A stretch of 9,435 bases of DNA. Source: a virus (taxonomy: Duplodnaviria; Heunggongvirae; Uroviricota; Caudoviricetes). The DNA is taken from the IMG/VR virus record IMGVR_UViG_2671180577_000006, one strand, 5' to 3'. The first letter of the stretch is position 1, and each line of letters opens with the position of its first letter. A model generated the notes under the pieces. The model did not search any database. It was not told the origin of the DNA and worked only from the letters and a program-made list of their open reading frames with translations. This document shows, piece by piece, positions 6,896-9,435 of the stretch. The position numbers were made by a program, and so were the translations under genes.

Positions 6896-9435
6896 ATGAC
6901 AGTAAAAATTTCTGGCGTGCTTAAAGATGGCACAGGAAAACCAGTACAGAACTGCACCATTGTGCTGAAGGCCAGACGAACCAGCAGCACGGTGGTGGTG
7001 AACACGCTGGCCTCAGAAAATCCGGATGAAGCCGGGCGTTACAGCATGGACGTTGAGTACGGTCAGTACAGCGTTATTCTGTTGGTGGAGGGATTCCCGC
7101 CGTCACATGCCGGGACCATCACCGTGTATGAAGATTCTCAACCCGGTACGCTGAATGATTTTCTCGGTGCCATGACGGAGGATGATGCCCGTCCGGAGGC
7201 ATTGCGACGTTTTGAACTGATGGTGGAAGAGGTGGCGCGTAACGCGTCCGCAGTGGCACAGAACACGGCAGCCGCGAAGAAGTCAGCCAGTGATGCCAGC
7301 ACATCTGCCCGTGAGGCGGCAACCCATGCGACTGATGCTGCAGGCTCAGCACGTGCAGCCAGCACGTCAGCCGGACAGGCCGCGTCGTCGGCTCAGTCAG
7401 CGTCTTCCAGCGCAGGAACGGCATCAGCAAAAGCCTCTGAGGCATCAAAAAGTGCTACCGCTGCAGAGTCCTCAAAAAGCGCGGCAGCTACCAGCGCCGG
7501 TGCCGCGAAAACGTCAGAAACGAATGCCGCAGCATCACAAAAATCGGCAGCCACTTCTGCATCCACAGCGACCACGAAGGCGTCAGAAGCTGCCACCTCG
7601 GCACGGGGTGCGGCGGCCTCAAAAGAGGCAGCGAAATCTTCAGAAACGAATGCATCATCAAGTGCCAGTAGTGCAACTTCCTCGGCAACGGCGGCAGGAA
7701 ATTCCGCGAAGGCGGCAAAAACGTCCGAGACGAACGCTAAGTCTTCTGAAACAGCAGCGGGACAGAGCGCCTCAGCTGCGGCAGGTTCAAAAACAGCGGC
7801 TGCATTATCTGCCAGTGCCGCGTCAACAAGTGCCGGGCAGGCCTCAGCCAGTGCCACCGCCGCCGGAAAATCGGCAGAAAGCGCCGCATCATCCGCTTCA
7901 ACAGCCACAACGAAGGCTGGCAAAGCCACTGAGCAAGCCACTGCAGCAGCGAGGTCTGCTTCTGCAGCAAAAACCTCTGAAACAAATGCAAAGACTTCAG
8001 CAGACAATGCTGCTTCCTCTAAGGCGGCAGCCGCATCGTCAGCCAGTTCAGCGGCGTCATCGGCATCATCTGCGTCTGATTCAAAAGATGAGGCGACCAG
8101 ACAGGCGTCAGCAGCAAAGGGCAGCGCCACGACGGCATCCACGAAGGCGACAGAGGCAGCTGGCAGTGCGACGGCGGCAGCTCAGAGCAAAAGTACGGCG
8201 GAATCCGCGGCAACGCGCGCCGAGACAGCGGCAAAACGGGCAGAGGATATTGCATCCGCCGTGGCGCTTGAGGATGCGAGCACGACGAAAAAGGGAATAG
8301 TACAGCTCAGCAGTGCGACCAACAGCACTTCCGAGTCACTGGCGGCAACGCCAAAAGCGGTTAAGGCGGTAATGGGTGAAACGAACAAGAAAGCGCCCTT
8401 AAATAGTCCTGCACTGACCGGAACGCCAACAACACCAACTGCGCGACAGGGAACGAATAATACCCAAATCGCAAGCACGGCTTATGTTATGGCTGCGATC
8501 GCTGCCCTCGTGGACTCGTCGCCTGACGCACTGAATACGCTGAACGAGCTGGCTGCGGCGTTGGGCAACGACCCGAATTTTGCGACCACCATGACTAACG
8601 CGCTTGCGGGTAAGCAACCGAAAGATGCCACCCTGACGGCGCTGGCCGGGCTTGCTACTGCGGCAGACAGGTTTCCGTATTTTACGGGGAATGATGTCGC
8701 CAGCCTGGCAACCCTGACAAAAGTCGGGCGGGATATTCTTGCGAAATCGACCGTTGCTGCCGTTATCGAATACCTCGGTTTACGAGAACTCGGCACAAGC
8801 GGGGAGAAAATACCGTTACTCAGTACAGCGAATACCTGGACTAATCGACAAACATTCAGCGGTGGCCTTTCTGGTGAACTATCCGGCAATGCTTCTACAG
8901 CTGCAAAATTAAAAACTGCCAGGAAAATAAGCAATGTGGCTTTTGATGGTTCCTCCGATATCACATTAAAAGCAAGTCATGTTGGTGCGTTTGCCTTAGG
9001 GAAAACAGGAAGCACCGTTGCGAATGATAAAGCAGTTGGATGGAACTGGAGTAGCGGAGCCTATAACGCAACTATTAGTGGTGCATCAACGTTAATTATT
9101 CATTTTTATATGGGAGAAGGAAGTTGTCCTGCAGCTCAGTTTCGGATTAATTATAAAAATGGCGGTATTTTTTATCGTTCAGCCCGTGATGGTTATGGTT
9201 TTGAAGCCGACTGGTCCGAATTTTACACCACCACCAGAAAACCTTCAGCAGGAGATGTTGGTGCACTGCCGTTATCTGGTGGTCAACTGAATGGTGCACT
9301 GGGTATCGGAACATCCAGTGCTCTTGGCGGTAATTCGATTGTATTGGGTGATAATGACACGGGCTTTAAACAAAATGGCGATGGTAATCTGGATGTTTAT
9401 GCTAATAACGTCCATGTTATGCGCTTTGTCTCCGG
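6896..9435 (+). CDS. stf: Side tail fiber protein Stf, 3'-partial (runs off the window end; at least 846 codons)
   Basis: Not in the supplied ORF track because there is no in-window stop. I traced the frame by hand from ATG 6896 (preceded by GGTGGA and by in-frame TAA 6821-6823) to the window end without a stop. The N-terminus MTVKISGVLKDGTGKPVQNCTI... is recognisable as the lambda Stf (orf-401) N-terminus. A long Ala/Ser/Thr-rich shaft with repeated KTSETNA motifs follows, then the tail-fiber motif NSPALTGTPTTPTARQGTNNTQIASTAYV, then a distal segment with GDNDTGFKQNGDGNLDVYANN-type motifs. The minus-strand 249-aa Ala-rich ORF and the plus-strand 336-aa Arg/Gln-rich ORF are alternative-frame artefacts of this gene. 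Confidence 0.85.
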   Translation, partial: MTVKISGVLKDGTGKPVQNCTIVLKARRTSSTVVVNTLASENPDEAGRYSMDVEYGQYSVILLVEGFPPSHAGTITVYEDSQPGTLNDFLGAMTEDDARPEALRRFELMVEEVARNASAVAQNTAAAKKSASDASTSAREAATHATDAAGSARAASTSAGQAASSAQSASSSAGTASAKASEASKSATAAESSKSAAATSAGAAKTSETNAAASQKSAATSASTATTKASEAATSARGAAASKEAAKSSETNASSSASSATSSATAAGNSAKAAKTSETNAKSSETAAGQSASAAAGSKTAAALSASAASTSAGQASASATAAGKSAESAASSASTATTKAGKATEQATAAARSASAAKTSETNAKTSADNAASSKAAAASSASSAASSASSASDSKDEATRQASAAKGSATTASTKATEAAGSATAAAQSKSTAESAATRAETAAKRAEDIASAVALEDASTTKKGIVQLSSATNSTSESLAATPKAVKAVMGETNKKAPLNSPALTGTPTTPTARQGTNNTQIASTAYVMAAIAALVDSSPDALNTLNELAAALGNDPNFATTMTNALAGKQPKDATLTALAGLATAADRFPYFTGNDVASLATLTKVGRDILAKSTVAAVIEYLGLRELGTSGEKIPLLSTANTWTNRQTFSGGLSGELSGNASTAAKLKTARKISNVAFDGSSDITLKASHVGAFALGKTGSTVANDKAVGWNWSSGAYNATISGASTLIIHFYMGEGSCPAAQFRINYKNGGIFYRSARDGYGFEADWSEFYTTTRKPSAGDVGALPLSGGQLNGALGIGTSSALGGNSIVLGDNDTGFKQNGDGNLDVYANNVHVMRFVS
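7240..8280 (+). repeat. Low-complexity Ala/Ser/Thr-rich quasi-repetitive region inside stf (fiber shaft)
   Basis: Recurring nucleotide/peptide units such as GCGAAAACGTCAGAAACGAATGC (AKTSETNA) at about 7504, 7630, 7717 and 7966 with irregular spacing (126, 87, 249 nt). Strongly biased GCN/TCN/ACN codon usage gives open reading frames on several frames of both strands. Confidence 0.55.

Follow-up and report, generated by a model that had tools for sequence, protein, structure and literature searches.

A compositional break in a lambdoid side tail fibre gene from an E. coli prophage is very probably the left edge of an invertible cassette of the Mu G-segment type

Why does the side tail fibre gene at the end of this viral contig become richer in AT while its reading frame runs on uninterrupted? 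The window, that is, the whole 9,435-nt stretch of DNA analysed here (IMG/VR record IMGVR_UViG_2671180577_000006), is an entire short-read draft contig, and its gene order, M-L-K-I-J-lom-stf, is that of a lambdoid tail-gene block. The last gene, stf (6896..9435, + strand), is open for 846 codons up to the contig end and lacks its 3′ end; the full-length homologue in E. coli AST81 and JJ1886 has 941 aa. Residues 1-134 of the full-length relative match PF08400 (phage_tail_N) at 1.3e-70 in Pfam. With this domain at its N terminus and its gene placed after J and lom, the product has the features of a lambda-type Stf. Promoter and terminator scans gave no more than the shuffle expectation, apart from an obvious terminator before stf.

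A preliminary description of this DNA had claimed an AT-richer shift inside stf, and the shift proved to be real. A single change-point fit to the G+C content placed the break at nt 8805 (2-log-likelihood support interval 8664-8905), where the GC of stf falls from 0.579 on the left to 0.436 on the right. The log-likelihood ratio was 19.5, beyond all of 300 codon shuffles of stf (maximum 9.0), and nt 8805 is also the best change point across the entire 9.4-kb window. The GC and codon-usage profile, which had been proposed as a check, was not flat: GC3 steps from 0.587 (8261-8761) to 0.296 (8848-9435). Because GC1 and GC2 are nearly constant across this step, the drop in GC lies at synonymous positions. 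The AT-rich strings and the peptide quoted in the description were found where it had placed them, and its guess of a junction near residue 630 came within three residues of the crossover dinucleotide discussed below (8775-8776, residue 627).

The proximal part of the gene, the constant lambdoid-type fibre part Sc (6896..8775, + strand; GC 0.58), matches lambdoid stf genes, with 92% identity to those of PhiR26_1/mEp460-type lambdoid siphoviruses. It includes an Ala/Ser-rich shaft (7256-8260), in which Tandem Repeats Finder detected no real array, and a conserved ...GKQPKDATLTALAGL...FPYFTG...AAVIEYLG region. Many E. coli prophages resemble the window only as far as 8781-8783, and the similarity of lambda stf (78-85% nucleotide identity) ends at window position 8778. 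At that end point, a decayed form (TTCTTGAATACCTTGGGGCCGGTGAGAA) of the crossover site described below is present in lambda stf.

The distal part, Sv (8777..9435, + strand; GC 0.44, GC3 0.30-0.32), is the putative variable, receptor-recognising C-terminal part of the fibre, and it is incomplete: the window holds the first 660 nt of the cassette, which supply the first 220 codons of Sv. ST131-type prophages carry an almost identical Sv (99.7-99.8%). The stretch 8848..9435 (+ strand) is homologous to tail fibre gene H of P2-like myoviruses (85-86% nucleotide identity), the best phage matches from 8848 on being of the H type (Yersinia phage L-413C, P2-like Peduovirus and others). Within it, 8986..9265 (+ strand) is homologous to Mu S′, the G(-) fibre tip, at 80% nucleotide identity; the alignment pairs 11091-11370 of relative L001, whose coordinates minus 2105 give window coordinates, with Mu 4066-3787. 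The Sv protein matches PDB 8ju3 (Mu 'Tail fiber protein S, S′'; E 2.6e-54) and 5yvq (Mu S; 1.5e-15), so that the tip is homologous to both Mu S/S′ and P2 H. Pfam gave one sub-threshold gp37_trimer match for Sv and no family for Sv′, the alternative tip found in relatives. By homology, the distal segment of stf is a foreign module of the Mu S′/P2 H type, predicted to recognise the receptor and belonging to another lineage than the rest of the gene. The preliminary description had suspected as much, and the change of best match from lambdoid stf (92%) before the junction to P2-like H (85%) from 8848 supports it. The receptors may be variants of the LPS core, by analogy with Mu and P2. The description had also held that a shared nearest homologue over the full length of both halves would speak against a swap. 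Phi4-type ST131 prophages do match both halves over their full length at 97-98%, but this test would mislead, wrongly counting against the mosaic, because the mosaic is visible only against more distant relatives.

At the boundary between Sc and Sv lies a 26-bp candidate DNA-invertase crossover site, TTATCGAATACC-TC-GGTTTACGAGAA (8763..8788), with its central dinucleotide TC at 8775-8776; both the GC break and the homology breaks coincide with it. It forms part of the left arm (8757..8788) of a 32-nt imperfect inverted repeat, the two arms of which enclose the invertible segment in relatives. In relative L001, 10862-10893 pairs with 13949-13980, the two arms being 84% complementary and 3055 nt apart. 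When the site was compared with Mu gix, whose sequence we confirmed in NC_000929 at the ends annotated for the G segment, 22 of 26 bases matched and bases 10-21 (ACCTCGGTTTAC) were identical; such a match is expected by chance 5e-6 times per window. A search of the window with the Mu gix pattern at three or fewer mismatches returned no match, because the site differs from Mu gix at four positions; a looser fuzzy search picked it up. As an imperfect palindrome with a conserved core and a central dinucleotide, placed at the constant/variable boundary of a fibre gene, the site has the features of the Din family. Comparison with Table 3 of PMC4134206 showed it to be identical to the published EC958 Phi1_5prime site and also to the Phi4 site in its forward form.

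Beyond the contig end, the cassette is known from relatives alone. The layout in AST81, JJ1886, 504239 and E66 is stf, tfa, an opposed tfa, an opposed 3′ fibre fragment and a truncated recombinase. The module occupies about 3.1 kb, with Sv-tfa on one strand and tfa′-Sv′ on the other, and it is bounded by an inverted copy of the site. This inverted partner (TTCCTGTAAACCGAGGTTTTAGATAA) lies about 3.0-3.2 kb downstream in five relatives (L001 and L012-L015); the copy at 3,055 nt matches gix at 25 of 26 bases. The entire cassette has a GC of 0.44 in relatives, against 0.58 for Sc. Both chaperones match PF02413, and at the amino-acid level tfa shares 69% identity with Mu U′ and tfa′ 78% with Mu U; gixR and the 5′ part of gin show 92-93% nucleotide identity to Mu. 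The sequence of the Sv′ tip includes ...EYLGLQETVNKAG...; read from the partner site onward, the Sv′ frame stays open, and the flipped junction made in silico is an in-frame fusion.

Are both orientations found? Two junctions were predicted at 8775/8776, namely Sc...TACCTC/GGTTTACGAGAACTCGGC and Sc...TACCTC/GGTTTACAGGAAACGGTAAAC. The forward junction was present in 325 genomes, and the flipped junction, searched with the query built in silico, was covered to at least 80% in 243 complete E. coli genomes (the best 30 of the 243 at 100% over 782 nt). Orientation varies within one numbered series of ST131 isolates that have consecutive accessions: the segment is forward in 2/0 and 4/0 but flipped in 4/1-1 and 4/4. 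Comparison of JJ1886 with EC958 shows that their right half-sites (...CGAGAA and ...CAGGAA, respectively) have been exchanged exactly and reciprocally; in the flipped EC958, the half-site GGTTTACGAGAA stands at the other end of the segment, and Sv lies there on the opposite strand beside the other site. Relatives thus carry the segment in both orientations, with the exchange at the central dinucleotide. For EC958 Phi4, a 3,106-bp segment in mixed orientations was reported from PacBio reads (PMC4134206); the same paper listed the same 26-bp site, noted a truncated invertase and proposed that the Phi1 invertase acts in trans. Inversion happens in ST131, as orientation differs between assemblies, an observation that concerns occurrence rather than rate and relatives rather than the window strain. 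We rejected the ending of draft contigs near the site as proof of mixed orientation, an argument made undecidable by the conserved 3′ region of Sc, which is multi-copy in E. coli (median of three places per genome).

What could drive this inversion? In every relative inspected, the adjacent gin-like gene consists of its first 59-64 codons only (PF00239, E 1.5e-14); this stump, with 93% nucleotide identity to gin, is fused to the 3′ end of a lambda-type tfa. The adjoining gene in relatives is thus not a full serine invertase gene, and the switch cannot run alone, which would leave it frozen in genomes without another Din invertase; inversion in the relatives must therefore be catalysed in trans by the invertase of another prophage. 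The truncation is old, since the gin-tfa fusion point is identical in four divergent relatives. This fusion point is shared by lambdoid prophages that diverge by 8-14% in stf and have different tip cassettes. In the Hin system, a Fis-bound enhancer of 65 bp is required in cis, about 100 bp from one site (PMC3798978). The gin 5′ fragment retained in relatives lies about 55-290 nt beyond the right site and so spans the expected enhancer position, and it may still supply the enhancer. It is conceivable, though we hold it rather doubtful, that the stump has been kept for its Fis-dependent enhancer, giving an 'orphan' cassette that depends for its switching on the invertase of another prophage.

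In our view, the stf gene of this lambdoid E. coli prophage very probably contains an invertible cassette of the Mu G-segment type, and the break marks its left edge. A serine invertase of the Din family (Gin/Cin/Pin/Hin), with Fis at the enhancer, would cut both sites at the central dinucleotide and rotate the segment. Sc would then be joined in frame either to Sv, the Mu S′/P2 H-like tip seen in the window, or to Sv′, each tip being expressed with its own assembly chaperone, and the alternation of tips would switch the receptor specificity of the fibre. The window strain presumably carries the remaining cassette and an active invertase. The preliminary description had taken the junction for that of a swapped module: the foreign tip stands, whereas a mere past swap does not, the junction very probably being the 5′ crossover site of a Din-family invertible cassette, a functional element through which two fibre tips alternate in a programmed manner. 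An invertase or alternative fibre cassettes had figured in the description only among the things to seek downstream.

That a Mu/P2-type tip was once recombined onto a lambdoid stf, leaving a gix-like relic and no inversion now in the window strain, is the alternative that deserves most attention, although we regard it as unlikely. The age of the invertase truncation, with one gin-tfa fusion in four divergent relatives, would suit such a static mosaic, as would the decayed site of lambda stf, which shows that sites of this kind fossilise; moreover, just the first 660 nt of the cassette are in the window. However, the site in the window is intact and agrees at every base with sites shown to recombine in EC958, and near-identical ST131 genomes with the same truncated invertase display both orientations and the reciprocal exchange of half-sites.

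Two further explanations were weighed. The shift might reflect the amino-acid make-up of the distal domain relative to the Ala/Ser-rich shaft, without any foreign origin, and Ala/Ser codons do raise the GC2 of the shaft (7256-8260) to an extreme 0.80. This we find scarcely credible: the segment 8261-8761 is not Ala/Ser-rich and yet has a GC3 of 0.59, which then falls to 0.30 with GC1 and GC2 almost the same, and the best phage homologues change from lambdoid siphoviruses to P2-like myoviruses. Alternatively, assembly across a repeat common to two different tail fibre genes might have made the draft contig chimeric close to its end. The window is, after all, a whole short-read contig, and in four other assemblies with an identical J protein the contigs end at window-equivalent positions 8770, 8828, 8868 and 8898. 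Such a chimera is nevertheless extremely improbable, given that the Sc-site-Sv junction is contiguous in closed genomes, 146 of which cover at least 80% of the full stf query and 325 the forward junction.

How does the cassette, read as an invertible segment, compare with known systems? It is closest to that of EC958 Phi4 (and Phi1), which has the same prophage fibre gene, with 97-98% nucleotide identity over stf and an identical 26-bp 5′ site; the segment in EC958 and JJ1886 measures 3,106 bp and contains two opposed pairs of tip and chaperone, followed by the truncated invertase. The surrounding genes differ: M-I and the N-terminal two thirds of J in the window are only 77-79% identical to the Phi4 type and 94-97% identical to an E66-type prophage, and lom, which is interrupted by ISEc12 in ST131, is intact in the window. 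With the Mu G segment the cassette, seen whole in relatives, shares the order Sc, gix, Sv-U, inverted U′-Sv′, gix, gin, the sites (22/26 bases on the left and 25/26 on the right) and chaperones 69-78% identical at the amino-acid level. Mu, however, is a myovirus, whereas the element in the window is a lambdoid siphovirus-type prophage; the Sc of Mu has 170 residues, against about 627 in the lambda-type Stf of the window; and the relatives' invertase gene, unlike that of Mu, survives as a stump joined to what is left of a lambda-type tfa. The P segment of e14 (pinE, stfP/stfE, tfaP/tfaE) and the Pin systems of Rac/Qin are likewise E. coli prophage tail-fibre inversions with a Din-family invertase, and PinQ, an invertase from another prophage, acts in trans on e14 (PMC12529663). 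The pix sites of e14 are far more divergent: a fuzzy search found none within six mismatches of gix, and we located them by eye from the core pattern. The e14 tips and chaperones show little or no detectable similarity to those of the present cassette. Among phages, gene H of the P2-like group matches the distal segment best at the nucleotide level (85% over 8848-9435), but the homology starts about 70 nt past the crossover point. In the one P2-like record compared, H is followed by one chaperone and no opposed tip gene or invertase is annotated; no gix-like site was found in the P2-like H locus examined.

Inversion of a tail-fibre tip is a textbook way of switching host range, reported in the 1980s-90s for Mu, P1, e14 and p15B. 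The present system is of this well-known kind, a phase-variable tail-fibre tip of the Gin/Cin/Pin family, and the 2014 paper on the EC958 invertible tail-fibre segment had already reported it from this prophage type in ST131 (Forde et al. 2014, PLoS One 9:e104400; PMC4134206). It therefore adds no new principle. A sharp GC3 step in a fibre gene can nevertheless pinpoint an invertase crossover site to about 30 nt. This helps to annotate intragenic invertible segments in draft assemblies, which often break there. The stf product of the window should not be read as one fixed protein, and its missing 3′ end means that two alternative tips are to be sought. If the doubtful idea of an orphan cassette were true, control of the switch would pass from one prophage to another, in a circuit that the host might use for surface or anti-phage functions, after the model of PinQ and e14 StfE2, for which such functions have been reported.

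What lies behind the change in base composition near the end of stf, the side tail fibre gene? The preliminary description had proposed that an AT-richer distal segment, joined to the rest of the gene near 8800, is a swapped receptor-recognition module. A one-change-point likelihood fit placed the G+C break at nt 8805 (support 8664-8905; GC 0.579 on the 5′ side versus 0.436 on the 3′ side), with a log-likelihood ratio of 19.5 versus at most 9.0 among 300 codon shuffles, and the same nucleotide is the best change point across the whole window. GC3 drops from 0.587 at 8261-8761 to 0.296 at 8848-9435 with GC1 and GC2 remaining near 0.5, which rules out an amino-acid effect as the cause. 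The fit and the GC3 drop bear out the AT-richer segment, the junction had been correctly placed, and the AT-rich nucleotide strings and the peptide quoted earlier are present. The idea of a swapped module holds in that the distal part is foreign, but the junction is better described as the 5′ crossover site of a Gin/Pin-type programmed invertible tail-fibre cassette, which is of a known kind, published before for this prophage type.

The window is the entire 9,435-base draft contig CYAX01000087.1 (assembly GCA_001285865.1) and carries a lambda-like tail block comprising the minor tail protein gene M (216-545), L (545-1243), K (1249-1992), I (1989-2537), J (2598-6077), the Ail/Lom barrel gene lom (6145-6744) and stf, which runs from 6896 to the contig end with its frame open and encodes a Pfam prophage tail-fibre N-terminal domain (Stf residues 1-134). 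The lom gene is intact here; in the ST131 strains JJ1886 and EC958 it is split by ISEc12, an IS21-family element (2657-5849 and 2165-5350 of the respective loci). A strong terminator-like hairpin with a T tail (6848-6877; 13-pair stem, GAAGCCCGTGGCG...CGGGCTTT TTTTATT) lies just 5′ of stf, and a second such hairpin lies between J and lom (6096-6115), suggesting that stf is transcribed separately from lom or depends on read-through. The Stf shaft (7256-8260, plus strand) is Ala/Ser/Thr-rich and of low complexity (GC2 0.80, AT skew up to +0.49), and Tandem Repeats Finder detected no regular repeat array in it. Among the long antisense ORFs over the shaft (7393-8142, 7119-7448 and others), one of 245 aa is a called gene in the public record; it had no match in Pfam, and the call is almost certainly a gene-calling artefact.

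At 8763-8788 the window reads TTATCGAATACC-TC-GGTTTACGAGAA. The Mu crossover site gix, TTATCCAAAACCTCGGTTTACAGGAA, was verified in the Mu genome, where it occurs exactly, once per strand, at both annotated boundaries of the G segment. The window site agrees with it at 22 of the 26 positions, bases 10-21 (ACCTCGGTTTAC) being identical; the chance expectation for such a match in a sequence of this size is ~5e-6. Its central dinucleotide (8775-8776) is part of Stf codon 627, in the stretch ...AAVIEYLGLRE.... The contigs of four other draft assemblies that encode an identical J end at the equivalents of 8770, 8828, 8868 and 8898, all at most about 120 nt from the crossover site and one inside it. 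These breaks may stem from both orientations being present in the culture that was sequenced, or from the region being multi-copy.

A gene 97-98% identical to stf along its full length is present in 146 closed E. coli genomes, ST131 strains being numerous among them. In strain AST81, stf (941 aa) is followed by a tail-fibre assembly gene and then, on the opposite strand, by a second assembly gene and a 3′ fibre fragment, with a ‘recombinase family protein, missing C-terminus’ last. An inverted repeat search of AST81 located a partner site 3,055 nt downstream, TTCCTGTAAACCGAGGTTTTAGATAA, which shares 25 of 26 bases with gix. From this site the frame stays open through the opposite-strand fibre fragment (...NLGLQETVNKAGNAVQRSGDKMTGELKIG...), and an in-silico swap at the central dinucleotide gives the in-frame fusion ...AAVIEYLGLQETVNKAG.... 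The whole AST81 cassette has a GC of 0.44 versus 0.58 for Sc, the constant 5′ part of stf, and this is why composition breaks within the gene. The same layout occurs in JJ1886, EC958, the ETEC-type strain 504239 and strain E66. For the window strain, the sequence covers the left site plus 660 nt of a single tip; the partner site, second tip, chaperones and invertase are assumed from these relatives. Chromosomal sites differ: in AST81, JJ1886 and 504239, prophages with this stf/cassette end adjoin a truncated ompW and have yciE and/or trpA close by, and in E66 the prophage adjoins potB-potA-pepT. A SAM-dependent methyltransferase gene always lies 3′ of the cassette in these four.

The cassette inverts in relatives. 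A predicted 782-nt flipped junction, absent from the genome used to build it, was found at ≥80% coverage in 243 closed E. coli genomes, the best 30 of which, EC958 among them, match at 100% identity over all 782 nt; the equivalent forward junction was found in 325 genomes. In one numbered strain series (consecutive accessions, same prophage at about 1.48-1.54 Mb), isolates 2/0 and 4/0 are forward versus 4/1-1 and 4/4 flipped. With a slash marking the centre, forward JJ1886 has TTATCGAATACCTC/GGTTTACGAGAA on the left and TTATCTAAAACCTC/GGTTTACAGGAA on the right, and flipped EC958 has ...TACCTC/GGTTTACAGGAA and ...AAACCTC/GGTTTACGAGAA; the half-sites are reciprocally exchanged exactly at the centre. 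Window positions 8759-9435 match EC958 on the opposite strand at 99.4%. Partial population matches stop or start at the site (1-389 and 363-782 of the forward-junction query; 1-8781/8783 of the window), and their overlap is the crossover site.

Din-family serine invertases bind both 26-bp sites as dimers and cut at the central dinucleotide, after which one subunit pair rotates and the DNA is inverted. A Fis-bound 65-bp enhancer joins the assembly, lying ~100 bp from one site in the Hin system (PMC3798978). The EC958 locus examined here is the Phi4 region of Forde et al. (PMC4134206), who detected the segment in mixed orientations in PacBio reads, placed its sites at 1484784..1484809 and 1487865..1487890 (invertible segment 3,106 bp) and noted severe truncation of its invertase gene. 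Because the Phi1 and Phi4 sites are nearly identical (Phi1_5prime in their Table 3 is gccgTTATCGAATACCTC GGTTTACGAGAA), they put forward the Phi1 invertase as the enzyme acting in trans on Phi4. Later work demonstrated such action between prophages for PinQ, which inverts the e14 segment (PMC12529663). In the relatives, 59-64 codons of the gin-like gene remain, 93% identical to Mu gin and fused to the final ~140 nt of a lambda-type tfa (13975-14400 of the AST81 locus; equivalents in JJ1886, 504239 and E66). The retained fragment spans the interval expected for the Fis enhancer of Hin/Gin systems and may still serve as an enhancer. The AST81 and JJ1886 stumps carry TGG>TGA at codon 60.

Judged by its sequence, this is a cassette of the Mu G-segment type. 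Its chaperones share 69% and 78% amino-acid identity with Mu U′ and U, respectively, and the right site plus the initial ~190 nt of the recombinase gene show 92-93% nucleotide identity to Mu gixR-gin. Within the variable tip Sv, 8986-9265 shares 80% identity with Mu S′, and the Sv protein hits the solved Mu fibre chain 8ju3 (S,S′; 2.6e-54) as well as 5yvq (1.5e-15). Among phage genomes, gene H of P2-like myoviruses gives the best nucleotide match to 8848-9435 (85%). Proximal stf, in contrast, is lambdoid, with 92% identity to lambdoid siphoviruses up to 8367; similarity to lambda stf reaches 8778, two bases or less from the crossover dinucleotide, and lambda retains just a decayed copy of the site. 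The distal part is therefore a foreign receptor-recognition module, as had been suggested; if Mu and P2 are a guide, its receptors may be LPS core variants.

Tail-fibre genes had also been described as hotspots of exchange, and this view is upheld. Against the ST131 Phi4 type, identity is 77-79% over M to I and the N-terminal two thirds of J, versus 95% for the remaining J, 97-98.5% for the stf shaft, 98.8% for the last 500 nt of Sc and 99.7-99.8% for Sv. The pattern against the E66 type is the opposite, with just 44% of Sv aligning, at 77%. On these identities the window's prophage is itself recombinant. Within J (4600-4900) there is a second break, at which GC falls from 0.66 (4600-4749) to 0.53 and then 0.50; within that one 150-nt step the Phi4-type J goes from 0.69 to 0.94 identity, and the E66-type J stays in the range 0.88-0.97 throughout. 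This step suggests that the C-terminal third of J, the receptor-binding part, has likewise been exchanged as a module. Four prophages with different tip cassettes, and with up to 14% divergence between their stf genes, share one gin-tfa fusion point; in this prophage family, therefore, both the insertion of the cassette and the loss of its own invertase are old events. One and the same site joins this Sc to at least three different tip modules, and the Phi4 and E66 identity patterns thus indicate that fibre ends with their cassettes have been exchanged among lambdoid prophages.
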